49,944 bases of DNA from an uncultured Olsenella sp. Its GTDB lineage: Bacteria > Actinomycetota > Coriobacteriia > Coriobacteriales > Atopobiaceae. The notes below the pieces were generated by a model that was not told the DNA's origin, did no database searches, and worked only from the letters and a program-made list of their open reading frames with translations. Positions 2,391 to 40,752 of the stretch are shown here, piece after piece (position 1 is the stretch's first letter; each line of letters opens with the position of its first letter). Both the position numbers and the translations under genes were made by a program. The stretch spans positions 1-49,944 of the forward strand of contig CAMXZR010000001.1 in NCBI GenBank assembly GCA_947253595.1. The letters run 5' to 3'.

Positions 2391-3638
2391 CTACAGGGCG
2401 TTCTTGATAACGACGTCGCCCTCCTTCATGATCACGTCCATGTTGTCGGGCGTGAGGTCGTGGAGGTCTGCCAGGACGTCGCCCTTTACCATGAGGAGGT
2501 CCGCGTACTTCCCCTTCTCCAGGGAGCCGAACTCGTCCTCCCTGTGGACCATCTTGGCACCGTTGAGCGTGGCGGCGGTGATGGTGTCCATCGCCGAGAT
2601 ACCGCAGTGGTCGACCCAGGCGTACATCTCGTCGATGGTCGTGTAGCCGTAGGGCGTACTGAAGCTGAAGGAATCGGACCCCACGGTGAGGGTGACGCCC
2701 AGCTCGTAGGCGCGCTTGAGGTTGGCCCAGGTACGGGCGATGCCCTTCTCGGCGTTGTCCTTGCCGGGGAACCTGTCGAGCTCGGGCGTCCACTCCGGCG
2801 GGTAGGTGCCATACCAGCTGGGCAGGAAGCCCACGGTGGGCGTGAAGAAGGTCCCCTGCTCGGCCATGAGGCTCATGGTAACGTCGTCCAGCTCGAAGCC
2901 ATGGATCAGCTGCTCGCAGCCAAAGCGGACGGAGTCGTACGCCGCCGAGACGCTGTTGTAAGAGTGCGACCAAACGGGAATGCCCACCATCGCCGCCTCG
3001 TCACAGACGGCCTTGATCTCTTCCGTGCTCATGAGCTGGGCGCGGCCGGAGTCCCAGCGCCAGATGCCGCCGCCGGTGGCCCAGATCTTGATGGCGTCGG
3101 GGTTCTCGCGCAGGCGCATGCGGATGGCATGGCGCAGCTCCCAGGGGCCGTCCACCTGGTCTCCCCAGGGATGCCCGGTCTTGGACATCTCGAAGGGCAG
3201 GTTGTGGGAGTCGCCGTGACCGGCGGTGCGACAGAACCCCAGGCCGGTTGCGAAGATGCGCGGGCCCTTCATGATGCCCATGTTGATCAGGTCGCGGATG
3301 GCAATGCCATTGCGGCCGATCTCGCAGCAGGTCGTGAGGCCGTGCGTCACGGCGTCGTAGGCCTGCTTCACGGCGCAGGCCTGCTTCTGCGCCACCGTCT
3401 CGATGACCCAGTCGTTGTCGTTGTCGGTCAGGTTGCCCGAGAAGTGGATGTGCGTGTCCACGATGCCCGGCATCAGGGTGTGATCTGCGGCGTCAATGAC
3501 CTTGTAGCCCTCGGGGACCTCGATCGCCGCGCCGGCATAGCTTATGGTCTTGCCGTCCACCAGGACGAGGCTGTCCTCGACCGCCGCGGCACCGGTGCCA
3601 TCTACGAGCTTGCCGCCCACGAATGCGTACCTACCCAT
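2391..3638 (-). CDS. Metal-dependent amidohydrolase (Xaa-Pro dipeptidase-like subgroup)
   Basis: LMPGIVDTHIH, AIKIWATGG, SHSY, LIHG, GSDS and GSLEKGKYADLL motifs. Confidence 0.9.
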   Translation of the reverse strand: MGRYAFVGGKLVDGTGAAAVEDSLVLVDGKTISYAGAAIEVPEGYKVIDAADHTLMPGIVDTHIHFSGNLTDNDNDWVIETVAQKQACAVKQAYDAVTHGLTTCCEIGRNGIAIRDLINMGIMKGPRIFATGLGFCRTAGHGDSHNLPFEMSKTGHPWGDQVDGPWELRHAIRMRLRENPDAIKIWATGGGIWRWDSGRAQLMSTEEIKAVCDEAAMVGIPVWSHSYNSVSAAYDSVRFGCEQLIHGFELDDVTMSLMAEQGTFFTPTVGFLPSWYGTYPPEWTPELDRFPGKDNAEKGIARTWANLKRAYELGVTLTVGSDSFSFSTPYGYTTIDEMYAWVDHCGISAMDTITAATLNGAKMVHREDEFGSLEKGKYADLLMVKGDVLADLHDLTPDNMDVIMKEGDVVIKNAL

Positions 3639-3725
3639 GCTAGCCTCCACTTTCCTCGCTTGCCTCTTGCCTGTTAGACCGGTCGCCCAACCTGGCTCGC
3701 GCCATCCCGGGCGAGAGTTGCCTTG

Positions 3726-5201
3726 CTAGCGTCGCCGCGCGACCCCTACGGGCGCACGCCCCCCTCCCCTGCTGCCGAAGGCCAGGAGCAGGGCGAAGCC
3801 AAGGACCACCCAGACGATGGTGATGGCCCACTCCACGCCGTTCAAGGCGGCAGGACTCGCAGGCACGACCATGAGGACGATGATCAGGAGTCCCGCCACG
3901 ATGGCGCAGCAGATGCCGAACCTGCCGCCGTTGACCTTGTAGGGGCGCTCGAGGGCGGGCTCTGTCCTGCGCAGGCGCAGGCAGGCGAAGCCGGCCATGG
4001 TGCAGGCGAAGATGAAGCCGAGCGAGGCCACGTTGGTGAGGGGCACGAGCATGTTGCATCCCAGGAAGGGACCCACGAGGGTAAGGACGGCCAGCACGAC
4101 GTTGGCCTTTCGGGGGGCGCCGGACGCAGGGTCTATCTGGGCGAACGACGCGGGGAGCATCTCCTTGCGGCCCATTGCCAGCATGAGGCGCGCCGAGGCG
4201 CCGAAGAAGGAATTCATGGGACCGAGAGGGCCGAGCGTGGCGACGACGAGCATCGCGACGTAGAAGAAGAGGTTGATGCGCTCGAGCACGGCCAGGGCGG
4301 GGACGGAGGCACGCACGAACTCGTGCCAGTCGACGATGGACCCGAAGGAGTAGATGCAGACCAGGTAGAAGACGCCGGAGGCCAGAAGCGCGATGGCCGG
4401 CACCAGGCCGAACTTCTTCCAGTCGAGGTCGGCGGAGGCCTCCTCCGCCTGCTGCGGGATGGTGTCGAAGCCGGCATAGAAGAAGGGGGTCATGACCAGG
4501 ATCGCGATCACGCCGCCCAGAAGGCTCGTGGCACCGGTCGACCTGCCGCCTGCGGCATCGCTCACCTGGGAGAAGACGGGCAACGCGTTGCTGGGCGACC
4601 CCGTGGCGATGGAGATGGCCATCGCGAGTACCATGCCGGCGAGAAGCGCCTTGGTGAGGAAGGACGAGAGCTTGGCCGCCGCCCCCGCACCCTTGAAGTT
4701 GAGATAAATCACCAGAACAGCGAAGCTCAGGGCAATGATCGTGGGCCAGAGGTACACGTCAGCGCCCAGGATGGTGTAGAGGCGCACGGAACGCAGCCAC
4801 GAGAGGGCTGGGAATTCGACGAAGCGGTCAGTGAGCAGGGTCGAGATGGCGATCGCCTCCCAGGGGCAGAGCGGCGCGTTGCCCAGGAGCAGCATCCAGC
4901 CGGTGAGAAAGCCGAGCCTGCGGCCGAAGCTGCGGTCGACGTACTCGATGATGCCGCCCGAGATGGGGATGGCGGCGGTGAGCTCGCCGAAGCACATGCC
5001 TATGGGGACGAGGAAGACGGCTCCCAGGGCGAAGGCGATCATGGCCGGAACGGGACCGCCGCCCAGGACCATCCAGTCGCCCACCAGCAGAACCCAGCCC
5101 GTCCCGATGATCGCGCCGAAGCCGATGGTGAAGAAGTTGAAGAGCGTGAGCTCCTTCTTCATGCCACCAGAGACGACGGGCTGCTCGTCCTTGTCTGACA
5201 T
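3726..5201 (-). CDS. APC family amino acid permease
   Basis: GFGAIIGTGW, ELTAAIPISGG, FFYAGFD and RPYKV motifs; about 12 hydrophobic segments; ATG after GGAGGG. Confidence 0.9.
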   Translation of the reverse strand: MSDKDEQPVVSGGMKKELTLFNFFTIGFGAIIGTGWVLLVGDWMVLGGGPVPAMIAFALGAVFLVPIGMCFGELTAAIPISGGIIEYVDRSFGRRLGFLTGWMLLLGNAPLCPWEAIAISTLLTDRFVEFPALSWLRSVRLYTILGADVYLWPTIIALSFAVLVIYLNFKGAGAAAKLSSFLTKALLAGMVLAMAISIATGSPSNALPVFSQVSDAAGGRSTGATSLLGGVIAILVMTPFFYAGFDTIPQQAEEASADLDWKKFGLVPAIALLASGVFYLVCIYSFGSIVDWHEFVRASVPALAVLERINLFFYVAMLVVATLGPLGPMNSFFGASARLMLAMGRKEMLPASFAQIDPASGAPRKANVVLAVLTLVGPFLGCNMLVPLTNVASLGFIFACTMAGFACLRLRRTEPALERPYKVNGGRFGICCAIVAGLLIIVLMVVPASPAALNGVEWAITIVWVVLGFALLLAFGSRGGGRAPVGVARRR

Positions 5202-5520
5202 ACGTCCCTCCCCCTTCGCGCGCGAACCGCGCCCACGCCCGAAATCGGGCCTCGCGCCCCAACGGGACGCACCCCCCACACATGAAAAAGCTAGCGAGCA
5301 GGAACCTGCACCGACCCCGTCCGAACTGCGGGCGCGAATCCTGGAGGTGCGAACGGCAGAGACGCGCAGGCTGCCCATGAGGCTTTCTAACAGGAGCATG
5401 AGCACGTCTCATCTGCTGGCACCGGAGAGGCAATGGAGGCCTGGGGCAGGGCCATGCGAGACACCCGAGCGACGGAGCGACCGTGCAGGGGAGTCATGGC
5501 CCCCTCCGCCACAGACATCC

Positions 5521-10190: not shown

Positions 10191-11291
10191 CTACCTGTTC
10201 TGGATGCTCCCCACGTTCTTGATGAGGATGGAGACGCGCCCCTCCGCATCGCGCGAGAACTCGATGTAATTGTCGTTCGAGGCGTACTCGGAGGGGAAGC
10301 TGATCTCTATGCCCGTGTCGGTGCGAATCTTGTGGCTCTTGGCCATGCGGTTTGCCACGCCCCTGCGGACGCTGACCTCCTCGGGCAGGCGCTCCTCCCG
10401 CGCCGCCTGCTCGTAGCGCTCCTGGACGTCCGGCCTCCCCTCGAAGACCTCTCGCCCCACCCTCTCGGGGGAGAAGGACTCCTCGCGCTCGGCACTGCTC
10501 GCCACGTAGGCCTTGGCCTGGGCGACCGCCTCCACGGGGCTGATGCCGCACTCCTCGGCCACGTCCTCGACGATGCGCTCCACGGCCTCCAACGCCTCGC
10601 GGCTCGAGGCCTCGGCGCTGCACTGAAGGAGGCCGTCCGGGATGATCATGCGCTCCTGGCTGCCCTGGGTGCGCGTCTTGTCCCTGAAGTCGATGCTCAG
10701 GTCCTGGAGGTCCACCAGGAGGTAGGAGTCCACCTTGGCGGTGGGGTTGGGCAGGGTCGAGTCCTGGCGCAGGATCTCGTTGGCGGCCATGCCGGAGGCG
10801 TCGTTACCCAGGTCGTGCACGAAGGCCTGCTTGCGGGGCAGGAGCACCGCCGCGAAGCAGCGTCGGCTCAGGTCGGGGGCATCCTCCTCGGACGGCTCGC
10901 GGGTGGGGTCGCCCACGGCCTGCGCCGCCTGGGTCTTCTCGGCCGCCTTCGATCCCATCTCCTGCGTCTCGCTGAAGTCCGCCACGAGGAGGTCGCACTC
11001 CTCGAGCTCCTCGCAGCGCCTCAGCTCCTCCCAGAGGTACTGCCCCAGCTGGTTCGAGAGCTCGACGAATCCCACCTGCCCCCGGCGGTACTCCTCGAGC
11101 CCCCGGGCAAAGGAGCTCTGCTCGCTGAAGCTGCCATGCCGGTTGTCGGGGCTCGACGAGACGCTCCTGAGCCGCCGCTGCACGTAGGACCTCACCGGAC
11201 GCTGGGAGAGGTCCAGCTCGCGTTCCGAGAGGTAGCTGCTCCCGGTCTCGAACTCGAAGGCATGCAGTATGGCGTGGGTCACTCTGAGCAT
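10191..11291 (-). CDS. Nucleoid-associated protein (37-kDa NdpA/YejK-like family)
   Basis: Begins ..HAILH.F.....LS..EL and ends KIRTDTGIEISFP..Y......IEF.....G..SILIKNV, as in this family. Confidence 0.75.
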   Translation of the reverse strand: MLRVTHAILHAFEFETGSSYLSERELDLSQRPVRSYVQRRLRSVSSSPDNRHGSFSEQSSFARGLEEYRRGQVGFVELSNQLGQYLWEELRRCEELEECDLLVADFSETQEMGSKAAEKTQAAQAVGDPTREPSEEDAPDLSRRCFAAVLLPRKQAFVHDLGNDASGMAANEILRQDSTLPNPTAKVDSYLLVDLQDLSIDFRDKTRTQGSQERMIIPDGLLQCSAEASSREALEAVERIVEDVAEECGISPVEAVAQAKAYVASSAEREESFSPERVGREVFEGRPDVQERYEQAAREERLPEEVSVRRGVANRMAKSHKIRTDTGIEISFPSEYASNDNYIEFSRDAEGRVSILIKNVGSIQNR

Positions 11292-12964: not shown

Positions 12965-14056
12965 CTAGTCCTCCAGCGCCGCCCTGCCGTAGGCGTCCGC
13001 CGCCAGCATGGCGCTCGCGACCTTCTCGGGCGTGACTTCGAAGGGCATGTTGTGGAGGGTGTCGTTCTCCGCGCAGGCCAACCTTGCCACCTCGAGCACG
13101 CGCTCCCGGCTCGTGTCCTCGACGCCCAGCTGGCCGAAGGTCACGGGCAGGCCCAGCTCGACGCAGAAGTCGAGCACGTCGTAGAGCTCGTCGGCGTCCT
13201 CGAGCACAAGCTGGGTCAGGGTGCCGAAGGCGACCTTCTCGCCATGGTAGCAGGAGTGGGTCTCGGGCATCGCGGTGAGCCCGTTATGGATGGCATGCGC
13301 ACCCGCCAGGCCGGCAGACTCGAAGCCCAAGCCCGAGAGCAGGGTATTTGCCTCAATGACGTTCTCGACGCTCTGGGTGCAGGCCCCAGCCTCGAGGGCG
13401 AGCTTGGCCTTCATGCCGTCCTGCATCAGAGTGTCGTAGCAGAGCCTCGCGAGGGCCATGGCGGCTGCGGTCACCTTGTCCCCGGCACAGGTGGTGGCAT
13501 TCGAGCGCTTGCAGGCACGGGCCTCGAAGAAGGTCGCGAGGGCGTCGCCCATGCCGCTCACCGTGAGTCGCACGGGGCTCTTCGAAATGACGTCGGTGTC
13601 CATCAGGACCAGATTGGGGTTGGCCTTGAAGAACTGGTACTCCTTGAACTGTCCCTCGGGAGTGTAGATGACCGAGAGGGCCGAGCAGGGGGCGTCGGTC
13701 GCGGCGATGGTGGGGACGATCACCACGGGAGCGCCGACCCCCGACGCCACGGCCTTGGCGGTGTCGAAGATCTTGCCGCCGCCGACGCCCACGACGACGT
13801 CGGACTGCGCCTCGCGGCACGCGGCGGCCAGGCGGTCGATCTCGTCCTGGGAGCACTCTCCGTTGAAGCTGTCGTACGTCGCCTCGACCCCCGCGTCGGA
13901 GAAGCTCTGGGCGATGGTCTTGCCGAAGCGGCTGATGCCGCCCGCCGAGATGATGACGAGCGCCCTCCTGCCATAGTCCAAGACGTAGCCGCCCAGGCGG
14001 GACAGCTCGCCGGGCCCCTGAACGTACTTGGACGGAGAGATGAAGATGCGTGCCAT
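12965..14056 (-). CDS. gldA: Glycerol dehydrogenase
   Basis: ISPSKYVQG, GVGGGKIFDTAKA, PTIAATDAPCSALSVIY, AHAIHNG and HGEKVAFG motifs. Confidence 0.95.
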   Translation of the reverse strand: MARIFISPSKYVQGPGELSRLGGYVLDYGRRALVIISAGGISRFGKTIAQSFSDAGVEATYDSFNGECSQDEIDRLAAACREAQSDVVVGVGGGKIFDTAKAVASGVGAPVVIVPTIAATDAPCSALSVIYTPEGQFKEYQFFKANPNLVLMDTDVISKSPVRLTVSGMGDALATFFEARACKRSNATTCAGDKVTAAAMALARLCYDTLMQDGMKAKLALEAGACTQSVENVIEANTLLSGLGFESAGLAGAHAIHNGLTAMPETHSCYHGEKVAFGTLTQLVLEDADELYDVLDFCVELGLPVTFGQLGVEDTSRERVLEVARLACAENDTLHNMPFEVTPEKVASAMLAADAYGRAALED

Positions 14057-14271
14057 GGTGCTTCCCCTTTCGCCGCTTGCATGGTACCCCCCGGCCCAGT
14101 GCCGCGGGGCGCGACTCCAGTGTAGGCCTGCCGGACGGGAGGGGCGTCGGTACGGCGGCGCATGTAATTTCTCGCCCGATGGGCTTGACGGACCAGCGAG
14201 GCGGCCCCTGTCGTACCATCTTGTCGGCCACCGCCCCAGTGGGGCACCAGAAGGGAACGGAGCGACTCAGG

Positions 14272-15753
14272 ATGCAGACGGGCTTCGACAACGACAAGTA
14301 CATAGGGATGCAGGCGAAACGGATCCGAGAGCGCATCGACCAGTTCGGTGGCAAGCTCTACCTCGAGTTCGGGGGGAAGCTCTTCGACGACTACCACGCG
14401 AGCCGCGTCCTGCCCGGCTTCGAGCCCGACTCCAAGGCGCGCATGCTCCGCCAGCTCGCCGACGACGCCGAGGTCGTCTTTGCCGTCAGCGCCATCGACA
14501 TCGAGCAGGGGAAGCGCCGCGGCGACCTGGGCATCACCTACGACGAGGACGTCCTGCGCCTGATGGACGTGTTCCGCGGCATGGGCCTCTCCATCGGCGG
14601 CGTGGTGATCACCCGCTTCTCGGGACAGCCCAAGGCCGAGGCCTACCAGTCACGCCTCGAGCAGATGGGCATCGAGGTCTACCGGCACTACCCCATCGCC
14701 GACTATCCCTCCAACATCGACCTCATCGTGTCCGACGAGGGCTTTGGGAGAAACGAGTACGTCAGGACCACCAAGCCCCTCGTCGTCGTCACGGCACCCG
14801 GCCCCGGCTCGGGCAAGCTGGCCGTCTGCCTCTCGCAGCTCTACAACGAGCATGTGCGCGGCATCGAGGCGGGGTATGCCAAGTTCGAGACCTTCCCCGT
14901 GTGGAACCTGCCCCTCAAGCACCCCGTGAACGTCGCCTACGAGGCGGCGACCGCAGACCTCGACGACAACAACATCATCGATCCCTACCACCTGGAGGCC
15001 CACGGCGAGGTCACGGTCAACTACAACCGCGACGTCGAGACCTTCCCCGTGCTCAGGGCCATGATGGAAAGGATTGCCGGGCACAGCCCCTACCAATCCC
15101 CCACCGACATGGGCGTCAACATGGTGGGCTACTGCATCAGCGACGACGAGGCCTGCCGCGCGGCCGCCCTGCACGAGATCGTCCGGCGCCACTACTGGTG
15201 CGCCGAGAAGATCGCCCGCACCGGCGTGGGAGAGTCCGAGCTCAGGAAGATCGGCCTCCTCATGAAGGAGGTGGGCGTGGACAAGAACCTCAACCCCGCC
15301 CATGCCGCCGCGCTGCTCAAGGAGGAGGTCACCGGAAAGCCCGCGGGTGCGATGGTGCTGCCCGACGGCAGCGTGGTGACGGGCAAGACCTCCGAGCTCC
15401 TGGGTGCCGCGTCCTCCCTCCTGCTCAACGCCCTCAAGCGCGTCGCGGGGGTCGAGAAGGAGCGCTGGGTGGTCTCGGATGACGCCCTCGCGCCCATCAG
15501 CCGCCTCAAGACCACGCACCTCAAGAGCAAGAACCCGCGCCTTCACTCGGACGAGACACTAATCGCCCTCTCCATCAGCAGTGCCACGAACCCCGAGGCC
15601 AAGCGCGTGATAGAGGCCAGCGACCGGCTGCACGGCTGCACGGCGTACTTCTCGGTGATCATCAGCTCCACCGACGAGCGCGTCTACCGCAAGCTGGGGA
15701 TCAACGTCTGCTGCGAGCCCAAGTTCGAGCGCGGCACCTTCTACCACCGCTAG
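14272..15753 (+). CDS. DUF1846 / UPF0371 family protein
   Basis: GFDNDKY...KLYLEFGGKLFDDYHASRVLPGF, TAPGPGSGK and YAKFETFPVWNLPLKHPVN motifs. Confidence 0.9.
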   Translation: MQTGFDNDKYIGMQAKRIRERIDQFGGKLYLEFGGKLFDDYHASRVLPGFEPDSKARMLRQLADDAEVVFAVSAIDIEQGKRRGDLGITYDEDVLRLMDVFRGMGLSIGGVVITRFSGQPKAEAYQSRLEQMGIEVYRHYPIADYPSNIDLIVSDEGFGRNEYVRTTKPLVVVTAPGPGSGKLAVCLSQLYNEHVRGIEAGYAKFETFPVWNLPLKHPVNVAYEAATADLDDNNIIDPYHLEAHGEVTVNYNRDVETFPVLRAMMERIAGHSPYQSPTDMGVNMVGYCISDDEACRAAALHEIVRRHYWCAEKIARTGVGESELRKIGLLMKEVGVDKNLNPAHAAALLKEEVTGKPAGAMVLPDGSVVTGKTSELLGAASSLLLNALKRVAGVEKERWVVSDDALAPISRLKTTHLKSKNPRLHSDETLIALSISSATNPEAKRVIEASDRLHGCTAYFSVIISSTDERVYRKLGINVCCEPKFERGTFYHR

Positions 15754-15755
15754 GA

Positions 15756-15807
15756 GCCCAGGGGCTACGTGCCACAGGCAGGCCCAGGGACTACGTGCCA
15801 CGGGCAG
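15756..15807. repeat. 26-bp imperfect tandem repeat (2 copies)
   Basis: GCCCAGGGGCTACGTGCCACAGGCAG followed by GCCCAGGGACTACGTGCCACGGGCAG. Confidence 0.85.
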
Positions 15808-15868
15808 GCTCGAGGACCGGGCGCGACGCCAAGCCCGCCGGCTCCCAGCTTCTCTTGCTTCACGTCCC

Positions 15869-16055
15869 GTGCAAATCATTCCTGGAGTGCGCGGGACCTA
15901 TCTTTGACCTGTGGCGTTGTGGTCTGGCGCGCAAGCTGGCGGTAGTTTGCATGTGAGTCGCACGTCTTCGCGCGCACCGCAAGCGCAGTTTGCGCACGAG
16001 TTCTTTCTCACCAGGCAAAACGCAAAACCATGCGCAAGCTGGTGGGTTTTTGCGC
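15869..16055 (+). repeat. Left array of four GCGCA-N14-TGCGC palindromes (two paired elements)
   Basis: Units start at 15869, 15929, 15972, 16032; spacers 36/19/36 nt; cores TGACCTGTGGCG (15905) and TCACCAGGCAAAAC (16008). Confidence 0.85.
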
Positions 16056-16221
16056 GACAGGGCTCACTTCGCCGAGCGCCTGGCACCACCTTTCCAAAAG
16101 ACGTAAATGACCAGATTAGGGCAGGGTTATGTGCAGCTGTCTGCCAGCTGCGTGCCAGGCTCGTGCAAGCTCTCTTTTTCTCCTCGCCCGGCGGCGAGCC
16201 GAGGTGGGCTAGCGTTGATGC

Positions 16222-17358
16222 ATGGAGATCACGTTCTCGCATACCACGGCACTGGCGCTTCTCAGGGCGCTCCGGCGGGGAGAGCTGTGCACGCGAAACG
16301 TCCAACGCACAGACTACCCGCCCACGCAGATACGTTTTGGACGGCACGACAATGCCGTCCTTCTCGAGGCGCTCATGAGACCTCTAGGCAACATCGCCTC
16401 CATACTTGTCGCGGAGGTGACGCCCTTGGAACACCTTGTCAGGTCTACAGGGGAGAGGAGCCATTCTCCCCTGTTGAGGGGGCACCTGAGCAGCGCGACG
16501 CTGCCACCCGGCTCGTTCCTCCGGCTCGCTGCCGACATAGCCGTCCCCTCTCCCGAGCTCGCCTTCGTGCAGATGGCCGAGGTCCTGACGGACGCCCAGC
16601 TCCTTGCCCTGGGCATGGAGCTCTGCGGCGGCTTCGCCTGCGACCCACTCGGTCCCTCGCACGGACCGGCACGCTATGGACTCTCTCCCCTGACGACCCA
16701 GGGCAGGATGCTCTGGTTTCTCTCGCATGCACGGGGTCTACGACTAAGCGGCCGCGCCGGGAGGGCGGCGGTGCTGGTCTCGCCCAACGCCTGGTCCCCC
16801 ATGGAGGCGGTGCTGGCGACCCTCCTGCTGCTCCCCGCTGACAAGGGAGGCTTTCCGATAGCTCCCCTCGCTCTGAACGCATGCGTCTTCCAGGGAAGCA
16901 CGCCCATGGCCAAGGCCTCACGTGTCCCGGACATACTGCTCGAGGGTGCGGACGTGGGCCTCAACTACGACGGCCAAGACCACCTTGCGCTTTCTTCCCT
17001 CGAGACTGCCGCGATGGGCGCGGCGTGTAACCCAGGCAGCGCCGAGCGCCAGAGCGTCGTTTGCCGACTGCGGGCCCAGATAAGGGAGAGATACGTCGAC
17101 GACCGTCGCCGGGACCGCGACCTCGCGAGCCAGGGACTCACCGTCCTTTCCGTCACGGCAGAGGACCTGCGGACCTCCGATTGCCTCGAGTTCCTTCTGC
17201 GACAGATCGTGGCATGCCTCGAGCGAGGCACGGGACGGCGGGAGGAACACGCCAGGTCAATGCTGGAGAATCAGTCGCTCCGCGTTGCGCGTGCGAGGGC
17301 CCTCGCCGAGCTCCGCCGCTGGCCTGCAGCGCCCACCCCCTGCGCAAGCCCTACGTAA
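16222..17358 (+). CDS. Hypothetical protein with C-terminal DUF559/Vsr-like endonuclease fold and AbiEi-like N-terminal region
   Basis: SPELAFVQMA...GMELCG, SPMEA..ATLLLLP...GG, VPDIL....GLNYDGQDH, DRRRDRDLASQGLTVLSVT; codon usage looks less GC3-biased than its neighbours. Confidence 0.7.
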   Translation: MEITFSHTTALALLRALRRGELCTRNVQRTDYPPTQIRFGRHDNAVLLEALMRPLGNIASILVAEVTPLEHLVRSTGERSHSPLLRGHLSSATLPPGSFLRLAADIAVPSPELAFVQMAEVLTDAQLLALGMELCGGFACDPLGPSHGPARYGLSPLTTQGRMLWFLSHARGLRLSGRAGRAAVLVSPNAWSPMEAVLATLLLLPADKGGFPIAPLALNACVFQGSTPMAKASRVPDILLEGADVGLNYDGQDHLALSSLETAAMGAACNPGSAERQSVVCRLRAQIRERYVDDRRRDRDLASQGLTVLSVTAEDLRTSDCLEFLLRQIVACLERGTGRREEHARSMLENQSLRVARARALAELRRWPAAPTPCASPT

Positions 17359-17529
17359 TGTGCGCGCGATTCACACCTGAGCTGCGCAAACTGCCAAAGC
17401 CGCGCAAAACTCCTGCAGCGTGCGCACCACGTTGCGCCCATCTTGCGCACGCTACGCGTGGTTTGCGTGCAACATCCTCGTGACCTGGGAAAACACAAGG
17501 CTCCCGCGCAAACCTTTTCTGGTCTGCGC
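17342..17529 (+). repeat. Right array of four GCGCA-N14-TGCGC palindromes (two paired elements)
   Basis: Units start at 17342, 17402, 17445, 17506; spacers 36/19/37 nt; cores TGAGCTGCGCAAAC (17378) and TGACCTGGGAAAAC (17481). Confidence 0.85.
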
Positions 17530-17596
17530 GGGAGCCAAGCTTCCCCGTAACCCGAGCCTCCCGCCCGGGTCGTCCGTCGACGAAGTCCGTCGAACC

Positions 17597-18673
17597 CTAC
17601 AGCACGTGGACGTCGCTCGCGCGGAAGTCGAGGAACGCCTCGTCGCCCGCCTCGTAGATCTTCTTGTTCTTGGGGTTGAACTCGGTAATCTTGACCAGGT
17701 GCTCGCCGCAACGCACGTGGTAGTTCTGATAGTGGCCCATGAAGCGCGAGAGCACGACCTCGCAGGGCAGCACGCCCTCGTCGGCCACGTGGGCGGACTC
17801 CGGCCTCAGCACCAGGGTCACGTCGTCTCCCACGACCTTGCCGTTGCGCTCGGCGACCTCAATGGCACGACCCTCGACCATGACCTGGCCGGACTCGCCG
17901 TCAGTGGACGCGAGCCTGCCGCGCAGGAAGTTGGACTCGCCGATGAAGTCGGCGACGAACTCGTCCACCGGGCGGTAGTAGACGGTGTGGGGGTCACCGA
18001 TCTGGTCGACGATGCCCTTCTTCATGACGATGATCTTGTCGGAGAGGGCCATGGCCTCGGACTGGTCGTGCGTGACGTAGACGGCCGTGATTCCCGCTTC
18101 CTGCTGGATGCGGCGGATCTCGGTGCGCATGTCCACGCGCAGCTTGGCGTCGAGGTTCGACAAGGGCTCGTCGAAGAGCAGCACGCCCGGCTCGATGACC
18201 AGCGCGCGAGCCAGGGCGACGCGCTGCTGCTGGCCACCCGAGAGCTGGTTGGTCATGCGGTCCTCCATGCCCTCGAGCCCCACGAGCCCCAGGATGTTGG
18301 TGACCTTCTCGCGGATGGCGTCCTTGTCCATCTTACGCAGCTTGAGGCCATAGGCCACGTTGTCGAAGATGTTGTAGTGCGGGAGCAGGGCATAGCTCTG
18401 GAAGACCATGGCGGTGTCGCGCTTGTTGGGTGTGAGCTCGTTGATGGCCTCCTCGCCCAGGTAGATCTCGCCCTCGTTGGGACTCTCGAAGCCGGCGATC
18501 ATGCGCAGGATGGTGGTCTTGCCGCAGCCGGAGGGCCCCAGCAGCGTCACGAACTCGCCGGGCTCGATGTTGATGTTGGCGTCGTGGACGGCATAGAAGT
18601 CCTTGCCGGTCTTGGGGTCCTGGTAGATCTTCGAGATGTGGTCCAGGCGTACGCCCTTCTTCTCCTTGGCCAT
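17597..18673 (-). CDS. ABC transporter ATP-binding protein (FbpC/AfuC/PotA-like, with TOBE domain)
   Basis: GPSGCGKT, LSGGQQQRVALARA, LLFDEPLSNLD and VTHDQ motifs. Confidence 0.95.
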   Translation of the reverse strand: MAKEKKGVRLDHISKIYQDPKTGKDFYAVHDANINIEPGEFVTLLGPSGCGKTTILRMIAGFESPNEGEIYLGEEAINELTPNKRDTAMVFQSYALLPHYNIFDNVAYGLKLRKMDKDAIREKVTNILGLVGLEGMEDRMTNQLSGGQQQRVALARALVIEPGVLLFDEPLSNLDAKLRVDMRTEIRRIQQEAGITAVYVTHDQSEAMALSDKIIVMKKGIVDQIGDPHTVYYRPVDEFVADFIGESNFLRGRLASTDGESGQVMVEGRAIEVAERNGKVVGDDVTLVLRPESAHVADEGVLPCEVVLSRFMGHYQNYHVRCGEHLVKITEFNPKNKKIYEAGDEAFLDFRASDVHVL

Positions 18674-23253: not shown

Positions 23254-23337
23254 GCGCAAACCACAGACGTGCTGCGCGCGAGGGGACGTTTTCCCCGGTC
23301 GAAGAAAAATGGCGCGCACCCTGCTCACGGGCTGCGC
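23254..23337 (-). repeat. Solo paired-palindrome element (GCGCA-N14-TGCGC x2, 36-nt spacer)
   Basis: Units at 23254 and 23314; minus-strand core CGACCGGGGAAAAC. Confidence 0.85.
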
Positions 23338-26891: not shown

Positions 26892-26987
26892 GTCAGAACT
26901 GCGCATTGGCTTTCTTTCAGCCGATTGCGACCTGGGAAAACGTCCGCCGTCTCCACAACTCGGAGCTTCCGTGCGCAGTTTTTCGAC
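26892..26987 (+). repeat. Type-2 intergenic element (GCGCA-N66-TGCGC, core GACCTGGGAAAAC)
   Basis: Colinear with 40660-40752 between the GCGCA and TGCGC ends; terminal inverted repeat AACTGCGCA/TGCGCAGTT. Confidence 0.75.
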
Positions 26988-31977: not shown

Positions 31978-32062
31978 GCGCAGAACAACTCCAAAATGCG
32001 CGATAGACCGACAAAAGGCCAGTTCAGTTGAGCTATGCGCACATTTCGACTCCAGAATGCGC
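31978..32062 (-). repeat. Solo paired-palindrome element (N14 x2, 37-nt spacer)
   Basis: GCGCA-N14-TGCGC at 31978 and GCACA-N14-TGCGC at 32039; minus-strand core TGAACTGGCCTTTT. Confidence 0.75.
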
Positions 32063-40659: not shown

Positions 40660-40752
40660 GTCGAAAAAAGCGCATTGAATCCAGGACGATGGAACGAATC
40701 CTGGCCAAACGCCAATCGTCTTCACAATTGAACGCTTCCGTGCGCAGCTTTT
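40660..40752 (+). repeat. Type-2 intergenic element (GCGCA-N66-TGCGC)
   Basis: Shares GCGCATTG-N22-CCTGGnnAAACG-N5-CGTCTyCACAAy-N5-GCTTCCGTGCGCAG with 26901-26978. Confidence 0.75.

Follow-up and report, generated by a model that had tools for sequence, protein, structure and literature searches.

A nuclease-like gene between arrays of palindromic elements in Olsenella: a candidate cognate nuclease-repeat system

Why should the gene for an unannotated protein lie between two arrays of palindromes that match each other in geometry? The question is raised by a 49,944-nucleotide (nt) stretch of DNA from an uncultured Olsenella sp. (assembly GCA_947253595.1, contig CAMXZR010000001.1; the whole stretch is referred to as the window), in which an open reading frame (ORF) at 16222-17358, encoding a protein of 378 residues, is bracketed by eight sites of the form GCGCA-N14-TGCGC. 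To our knowledge, the repetitive extragenic palindromes (REP) and REPINs with their RAYT transposases represent the only established partnership between a short dispersed palindromic repeat and a dedicated enzyme. We consider that the locus is, with a probability of around 0.55, one unit of a cognate nuclease-repeat system that resembles REP-RAYT but makes use of a different enzyme. The case is founded on a repeat that is both real and genus-specific, on a link between gene and repeat that recurs, and on repeat subfamilies that are specific to individual paralogues.

The repeat family and its conservation

Read directly from the sequence, five of the eight sites are perfect and three carry one or two mismatches (Table 1). 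An earlier, sequence-only reading of this DNA had described them as two arrays with steps between sites of +60, +43 and +60 on the left and +60, +43 and +61 on the right, with an oriented core 36 nt after the site starts at 15869, 15972, 17342 and 17445, and with the right array starting inside the end of the ORF. All of this is borne out, and the site at 17342 shares the last 17 nt of the reading frame. The sites pair into four 84-nt elements, two on each side of the ORF, and all four cores are on the strand of the gene. In these elements, which we term A-type, each site is made up of two inverted cGCGCA half-sites with 14 bp between them, a spacer of 36 bp separates the two sites, and the oriented core, TGAsCTGG-n-WWWW, begins 12 bp past the first site. 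The build is thus a site, 12 nt (often g-n-c-ATTCTC-n-n-c), the core in the form TGAsCTGG-n-(AAAA or TTTT)-s, about 10 nt, and the second site. The commonest form of the site is cgGCGCAAACC-N6-GGTTTGCGCcg, and its inner bases lean to GCGCAAACC-N6-GGTTTGCGC.

The comparison of the motif with chance that the sequence-only reading had called for places perfect sites far above expectation and reveals a genome-wide family. The window harbors eight perfect sites, where 100 dinucleotide shuffles give 0.23 +/- 0.45 and none of the 100 reaches eight. Across the source genome assembly (G000; 1.60 Mb in 128 contigs, 66.8% G+C, 73% complete), there are 44 perfect sites with the N14 spacer, whereas the other spacers in the range N8 to N21 have 5-21 apiece. 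Among sites with no more than one mismatch, a start-to-start distance of 58-62 nt is seen 15 times, and any other distance up to 200 nt only once or twice. The comparison set comprised 41 genomes, with the genus represented by two of them, G000 and its sole genus-mate, G001. The two-site pattern is found 12 times in G000, 15 times in G001 and not at all in the 39 other relatives, and a reversed control pattern is absent from all 41.

Beyond the locus, there are around 12 A-type elements in G000, at 23254 and 31978 in the window and on ten other contigs. They are intergenic according to a gene map based on G+C content at third codon positions (GC3), and are found between convergent, tandem and divergent genes, in either orientation. 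The genome also contains further subfamilies, B, C, D and F, in which the core is the same and the ends are different; the terminal inverted repeats of the C subfamily, for instance, are AAAACTGCGCA...TGCGCAGTTTT, compared to GCGCA...TGCGC in the A-type. At least 13 solo C copies are present in G000, two of them in the window, and the copy at 26898-26985 is absent from the orthologous site in G001, which is rearranged. Subfamily B has the ends CCAAyGCGTCTG ... CAGACGCrTTGG around the core TGACCTGGGGTTTTG and is represented in G000 by C31:5849, C9:6511, C17:17503, C110:3802 and C14:19101. No paralogue of the gene was found beside the B copies, several of which are located at contig ends.

Comparison of the two species reveals which parts of the element are maintained. 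At the locus itself, identity between G000 and G001 is 76/80 in the half-sites, 29/32 in the cores, 69/112 in the N14 interiors and 108/151 in the other spacer positions, whereas nine pairs of solo elements give 175/180, 59/72, 148/252 and 177/254, respectively. Overall, the half-sites are 95-97% conserved and the N14 interiors around 60%, figures that are biased somewhat by the choice of position classes on the G000 sequence. The contrast pointed out in the sequence-only reading, that half-sites and geometry are kept while interiors and spacers differ, is confirmed by the element alignment, and these comparisons indicate that purifying selection keeps the half-sites and, less strongly, the core, while the interiors and the rest drift. 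Across the five inner pairs, Watson-Crick complementarity sums to 1.79, compared to 1.71 with shuffled partners, and 720 of 2000 shuffles reach 1.79. Since the inner bases do not co-vary, the sites look like inverted half-sites on double-stranded DNA rather than maintained hairpins, and A-type sites are thus candidate double-stranded protein-binding sites.

The protein and its association with repeats

The 378-residue protein has no match in Pfam (no family at E up to 1), NCBIfam or PADLOC. The HUH/Y1 domain is absent from the Pfam search, in agreement with the sequence-only reading, which had seen no HUH motif. That reading had also labeled the protein DUF559/Vsr-like, a label that is upheld for the fold and the motif and fails for the Pfam DUF559 profile, as PF04480 matches neither the protein nor any of 25 aligned homologues (0/25). 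Within 30 further family representatives, only sub-threshold matches to models of related nucleases were obtained, to REase_MTES_1575 in three and to DUF2726 in one, and one neighboring cluster in the ESM Atlas carries PF04480 on 11% of its members, which is a lead only.

A structure model of the protein (predicted local-distance difference test score, pLDDT, 88.5) was compared with known structures. In a wide VIA-align search, residues 190-338 match the Vsr endonuclease (1cw0_A) with a Z of 8.5 over 117 aligned residues (root mean square deviation, rmsd, 3.3), the DUF559-like protein NGO0050 (3hrl_A) with a Z of 8.1 over 94 residues (rmsd 2.6), and the homing endonuclease I-Bth0305I (3r3p_B) with a Z of 7.9 over 95 residues (rmsd 3.1); TnsA (Z 6.1) and Hjc (Z 6.0) are found lower down. 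These Z values are at the edge of the range that the tool terms common, and three of the top four matches come from one superfamily. Foldseek gave no match against the PDB at E up to 0.001, and sequence comparison to solved structures linked no chain. On the model, then, the C-terminal half has a Vsr/DUF559-type PD-(D/E)xK nuclease fold. Residues 1-187 resemble the C-terminal domain of AbiEi (chain residues 67-195) with a VIA-align Z of 6.5, and a weak match to AbiEi_1 (E 0.025) is found in one of the 25 family members. The motif RVPD...GLNYDG..H...RRDRDL is invariant across the 25 homologues, at the positions RVPD237, G246-x-NYDG251, H254 and R297-x-R299-x-L. The invariant residues include D237, N248, Y249, D250, G251, H254, R297 and R299, and none occurs before residue 111.

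The family is large and unnamed. The 65 homologues of around 400 residues are all unnamed or "hypothetical", their named sources are Atopobiaceae, and the closest named homologue locus is that of Olsenella phocaeensis (L123), at 74% identity. A profile search recovered 3803 clusters at 50% identity (E up to 0.001), and searches of plasmids and phages gave no match to the family. The gene has a GC3 of 0.77, compared to a genome median of 0.885. Most members of the family extend some 40 residues further at the C-terminus than this protein, whose end falls within the first site downstream. The corresponding ESM Atlas entry starts at residue 52, leaving out window positions 16222-16374, and so a later start has been called elsewhere; the family alignment supports the start at 16222.

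Within the genus, the link between gene and repeat is found at several loci. In G001, the orthologue is 74% identical and the order DUF1846, array, gene, array is kept, with four and five perfect sites in the two arrays. A decayed remnant of the family in G000 (C45:10856-10979), which retains the motifs ELTGGFSRSPHDPS and QLREKYVDDCRRDRDLLAAG, is flanked by A-type sites at 10654 and at 11008 and 11071, with a core between the last two. The paralogue on C85 lies between C-type elements at 834-917 and 2120-2205, of which the BLAST-aligned parts (856-917 and 2143-2205) are 81% identical, and the paralogue on C87 lies between F-type elements at 3646-3721 and 5125-5202 (80%), with four further F copies elsewhere. 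The association that the sequence-only reading had proposed to test, of each paralogue with its own repeat subtype, is therefore seen for C85 and C87 and not for a paralogue on C5, which has none; contig C113 is too short for bracketing of its paralogue to be judged.

G000 and G001 differ in the DNA next to the elements. At the place of the C45 remnant (G000 C45:10565-11180), G001 has 2.4 kb of unrelated coding DNA and one element (L035 821-3202), the element having perfect 10-4-10 palindromes, GCGCATTCTA-TTTT-TAGAATGCGC. Adjoining the orthologue of the C12:24961 element, G001 has 4.46 kb that is absent from G000 (L067 2298-6763) and that encodes a PIN-domain protein, VTC, DUF4956 and a Cthe_2159-type protein.

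The association extends to other genera. A repeat common to both flanks was found at 10 of 19 best-per-genome loci and at none of 11 DUF1846 control loci. In a second set of 11 loci, nine of which are new paralogues, seven were bracketed, two of these seven being already among the positives of the first set. An independent genome scan in Coriobacteriales started from 79 loci, of which nine near-duplicates were dropped and 12 had insufficient flank; 30 of the 58 tested were bracketed, as against 5/51 and 1/53 when the same geometry was shifted by 2 kb. Flanking of homologues by repeats, which the sequence-only reading had proposed to look for, is hence far commoner than in the controls. The flank copies are 75-290 nt in length and 76-100% identical, examples being L003 (100 nt, 97%), L009, L014, L015, L016 and others, and they are usually each other's best match. 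At L003, the two copies, with ends of 16 nt, are 97% identical to each other and 82-89% identical to solo copies. That flank copies are usually mutual closest relatives favors a duplication linked to the gene. The flank element occurs in solo form in other genomes as well, with three copies in G006, three or four in G017 and one weak copy in G015. The youngest-looking unit seen is L149, from a Coriobacteriales metagenome-assembled genome, where the flank copies at 3377-3453 and 4635-4711 are 100% identical over 77 nt and form long palindromes with perfect ends of 17 nt and the core at the apex.

The core is the part of the element that is held in common between genera. A weight matrix for the core, built from this genus only, has a median best score of 5.8 in the flank repeats of other genomes compared to 0.0 in control segments, and scores of at least 10 are reached in 6/34 flank repeats and 43/1700 control segments. 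Across genera the core takes the form (C/A)A(C/A)CTG(G/C)G-n-W4, and the ends are lineage-specific. A shared core with lineage-specific ends mirrors the conserved nuclease half and the variable first half of the protein, although this mapping is one that we infer. Nearly all relatives have an excess of a 12-mer form of the core, ACCTGSGNTTTT, which is matched in 38 of the 41 genomes. The richest case is G027, a 3-Mb genome from another family of the order, in which it occurs 80 times against none for the reversed control.

A proposed cognate system and its rivals

In the cognate system that we favor, the protein would recognize the half-sites on double-stranded DNA, and its nuclease domain would nick or cut in or beside the element. 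The ensuing recombination or repair would keep the elements in place and occasionally copy both elements and gene, in the way that RAYT acts on REP/REPIN sequences. Within the genus, the system seems to be old and almost static, either domesticated or resident, rather than an actively hopping transposon.

A number of observations weigh against a cognate system. With regard to the protein, the usual Glu of the DUF559 motif, E-x-D-G, is replaced by Asn, such that Asn248-Tyr249 stands where DUF559 has Glu-x, and because of this replacement catalysis is not assured. The AbiEi match spans the C-terminal domain of that protein and not its winged helix, and so does not show a DNA-binding domain. With regard to the association, the C5 paralogue has no bracketing repeats, 28 of the 58 loci in the scan are not bracketed, and only 2 of 21 metagenome loci are, although these were not deduplicated and are mostly near-identical. 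Of the 30 bracketed cases, 14 have their flank copies in direct and 16 in inverted orientation, and for this reason simple target duplication and simple integration are both poorly fitted; the near-even division fits better with a gene placed between two symmetric elements. The 12-mer ACCTGSGNTTTT also occurs in G013, G030, G033 and G038, with 6-12 hits against 0-2 for the control, and a profile search places no family member in these genomes; by eye, the contexts look heterogeneous, are partly coding and have no terminal inverted repeats. Finally, the A-type elements occupy orthologous positions in the two species, which argues against recent transposition: seven of the eight G001 solo loci have a G000 counterpart, the eighth being missing from the 73%-complete assembly, and the G000 elements on C10, on C12 and at C1:23254 align with G001. 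Between G000 and G001, no recent movement, target-site duplication or empty site was seen. Neither the 14 aligned C copies nor L149 shows any evident target-site duplication, and the DUF1846 neighborhoods of 11 other genera yielded no empty site, as synteny is lost outside the genus.

The closest known parallel is with the RAYT genes, which are described as flanked by a scattered repeat family, with lineages paired to repeat subtypes and a long-lived, vertical and near-static state (PMC5581495, PMC3479197). Like REP-RAYT, the present system consists of a low-copy gene flanked by a dispersed family of intergenic palindromic repeats, with gene lineages that pair with repeat subtypes and a state that looks long-lived, inherited vertically and close to static. 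Unlike RAYT, the enzyme is not of the HUH/Y1 type and has instead a Vsr/DUF559-type fold. REP sequences, which are hairpins of 20-40 nt, are reported to carry a GTAG or CGTC tag (PMC3733652), neither of which is found at the ends of A-type sites, and the hairpin covariation is also lacking. The elements differ further from REP in having two sites with a central oriented core, and in that several paralogues and subfamilies are present in one genome.

Other systems share individual features with the locus. As in miniature inverted-repeat transposable elements (MITEs), insertion sequences (IS) and composite transposons, the elements measure 75-290 nt and have inverted repeats at their ends, copies are found both solo and at the side of a gene, and the ORF ends at or inside the downstream repeat. 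In contrast to MITEs and IS, whole elements, not merely shared ends, flank the gene, in direct (14) or inverted (16) arrangement among the 30, with no DDE, serine, tyrosine or HUH transposase and no target-site duplication seen. Vsr, DUF559 (NGO0050) and I-Bth0305I share the fold of residues 190-338 and the motif PD ... x-D-G-x-x-H ... R-D..L, but the protein departs from Vsr and DUF559 in the missing PF04480 match, in having Asn-Tyr for Glu-x and in its extra N-terminal half of 190 residues. Unlike I-Bth0305I and Vsr, the gene is not within an intron or intein and no mismatch-repair context is evident. Enterobacterial bacterial interspersed mosaic elements (BIMEs) consist of palindromes, often tandemly arranged, on either side of a motif that binds protein, and here too palindromes surround a central motif and some copies are in tandem. 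In Xer/dif modules, genes are bracketed by inverted sites of about 28 bp with an 11-6-11 geometry, to which the commonest A-type site is close. In distinction to both dif and BIMEs, it is the outer arm bases that are conserved here and not the inner ones, and there is no evidence for the involvement of IHF or Xer. The fold of residues 1-187 is akin to AbiEi chain residues 67-195, and AbiEi proteins are described as binding inverted repeats (PMC7319586). Unlike the AbiE type IV toxin-antitoxin systems, there is no AbiEii gene beside the gene and no winged-helix match, and the AbiEi-like part is fused to a nuclease fold.

A broader claim, that the family constitutes an unrecognized class of repeat enzyme in Coriobacteriales, is put forward more tentatively and we would not bet on it at even odds. 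Under this proposal, the Vsr-fold nucleases of the 3803 clusters would be the dedicated enzymes of REPIN-like two-site elements built around a conserved core, with each paralogue recognizing its own ends and cutting or nicking at or near the shared core, so copying or maintaining both the elements and itself. If so, this would be the first such system based on a PD-(D/E)xK nuclease in place of an HUH transposase, and a second, unrelated enzyme family with the same genomic signature would mean that such a way of life has more than one origin. A large protein family from gut and oral actinobacteria that lacks annotation would also gain a function, and natural pairs of a nuclease and a recognition site of about 24 bp would become available, with specificities that differ between paralogues. 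As the half-sites and core are fixed and the interiors are free, the candidate binding sites are directly testable. As judged from titles, abstracts and term counts, no paper was found in which flanking repeat families are connected with DUF559, Vsr-like or AbiEi-like proteins, no report was found of MITEs in Coriobacteriia, and an arrangement like the present one was nowhere found described.

Two further explanations have to be considered, both of which we regard as improbable. In the first, the protein is a DNA-binding regulator, with a nuclease fold that is possibly inactive. The upstream palindromes would serve in autoregulation, the solo elements would control or insulate other genes, and the repeats would constitute a regulon and not one half of a partnership with an enzyme. 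The sites do resemble inverted half-sites on double-stranded DNA, with purifying selection on the half-sites and interiors that are left free. The two species keep the elements at orthologous positions, and Asn takes the place of the usual Glu of the DUF559 motif, E-x-D-G. The N-terminal half resembles AbiEi (Z 6.5), which is described as autoregulating via inverted repeats (PMC7319586). A regulon of this sort accords poorly, however, with elements that lie between convergent genes (C10:15189, C94:4323) or antisense between tandem genes (C11:17903), or with a gene that has elements on both sides, the downstream one overlapping its stop codon. Flank repeats of 75-290 nt at 76-100% identity and families of at least 13 copies at 76-90% show duplication of DNA and not convergent operators, and the nuclease-domain residues D237, D250 and H254 are invariant.

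The second explanation, which we likewise hold to be unlikely, makes the gene a passenger in a hot spot. REP- or MITE-like elements, whether host or selfish sequences, would be moved or kept by some other factor, or would act as terminators or stabilizers of mRNA, and genes would simply land or survive in repeat-rich gaps. That most elements are solo, that the GC3 of the gene is low (0.77 versus 0.885), as is often the case for acquired genes, that the last site gives a terminator-like hairpin for the ABC operon, and that core-like 12-mers occur in genomes without the family are all in keeping with this, as are the loci beside elements that differ between species (the extra 4.46 kb at C12 in G001, and a different gene content at C45 and at the 26.9-kb site). 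Yet windows shifted at the same loci are bracketed far less often (5/51 and 1/53 versus 30/58), the flank copies are usually mutual best matches (97% at L003, versus 82-89% to solo copies), and different paralogues in one genome carry different subfamilies. Nor was another candidate enzyme found: there is no RAYT, and the family is without match on plasmids or phages. RAYT itself was considered as the enzyme and rejected, as Y1_Tnp (PF01797) was not found in G000 (73% complete) and the one Y1_Tnp gene of G001 is unrelated to A-type sites. The latter gene (L021, an ORF of 164 residues) is flanked by its own hairpins (CCACCCGCAnAGCGGGTGG), has no A-type site that is perfect or with one mismatch beside it, and looks like an IS200-type TnpA.

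Scarcely credible is the alternative raised in the sequence-only reading, that the arrays give structured RNAs with informative variable segments of 14 and 36 nt in the manner of guide arrays: the regular geometry and variable interiors would suit it, as would the hairpins, long and with the core close to the apex, into which younger relatives of the element fold (L149, z -7.8; L003, z -5.2), but the interiors show no covariation and drift between species at about the neutral rate rather than gaining new segments, the elements lie in both orientations relative to neighboring genes, one of two folded elements, at 15965-16062, is no more stable than shuffles (z -0.63), and Rfam 15 has no match at the gathering score in the whole window, with matches at chance level only in 15700-17700 (best E 0.062).

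Further features of the locus

The coordinates of the gene, of the elements and of the leader are collected in Table 1.

Table 1. The gene, its flanking arrays and the solo elements found in the window
Feature	Position	Strand	Description
A-type element 1, left array	15869-15952	+	Sites 15869-15892 (GTGCA-N14-TGCGC, one mismatch) and 15929-15952 (GCGCA-N14-TGCAT, two mismatches); core TGACCTGT at 15905; half-sites perfect in the orthologous copy of the genus-mate
A-type element 2, left array	15972-16055	+	Sites 15972-15995 and 16032-16055, both perfect; core TCACCAGG-C-AAAAC at 16008; spacer nearly identical in the genus-mate
Leader, left array to start codon	16056-16221	+	166 nt; presumed promoter and 5' untranslated region; blocks conserved in the genus-mate
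Gene, 378-residue protein	16222-17358	+	AbiEi-C-terminal-like residues 1-187; Vsr/DUF559-fold nuclease-like domain, residues 190-338
A-type element 3, right array	17342-17425	+	Sites 17342-17365 and 17402-17425, both perfect; core TGAGCTGC-GC-AAAC at 17378
A-type element 4, right array	17445-17529	+	Sites 17445-17468 (GCGCA...TGCGT, one mismatch) and 17506-17529 (perfect); core TGACCTGG-G-AAAAC at 17481
Solo A-type element	23254-23337	-	Between two - strand genes; orthologous copy in the genus-mate
Solo C-subfamily element	26898-26985	+	Ends AACTGCGCATTGG ... CCGTGCGCAGTT, core GCGACCTGGGAAAACG; subfamily that brackets the C85 paralogue
Solo A-type element	31978-32062	-	Between divergent genes; orthologous copy in the genus-mate
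Partial or diverged C-subfamily copy	40683-40752	+	77% identity to the copy downstream of the C85 paralogue

The leader contains no sigma-70-like match. A reading of the elements as promoters was set aside, as no sigma-70-like match was found and the elements are also present between convergent genes. The last site of the right array (17506) widens to a palindrome of 16 pairs at 17499-17536, which has a T-rich tail on the - strand. On that strand the palindrome follows the ABC ATPase gene and resembles a terminator, and transcription of the ABC transporter operon may end at it. The single-strand fold z of element 4 is -4.6. A connection between the core and the CCWGG sequence associated with Vsr was dropped, since CCWGG is not depleted in the genome (ratio 1.01) and the core is often CAACTGGG in other genera.

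The neighbors of the gene encode an iron-containing alcohol dehydrogenase (Fe-ADH), DUF1846, an ABC ATPase and a permease, with no AbiEii (DUF1814) toxin gene adjacent. Upstream of the left array and 3 nt past the DUF1846 stop codon, two tandem units of 26 nt (GCCCAGGGGCTACGTGCCACAGGCAG, 92% identical) occupy 15756-15807 and are absent from the aligned G001 sequence. The DUF1846 ORF (14050-15753), as listed, begins around 70 codons before the region that is matched in 11 other genera. Matches from other genera begin at query residues 32-78, the ORF overlaps the Fe-ADH gene on the opposite strand, and the true DUF1846 start is probably further downstream than listed.

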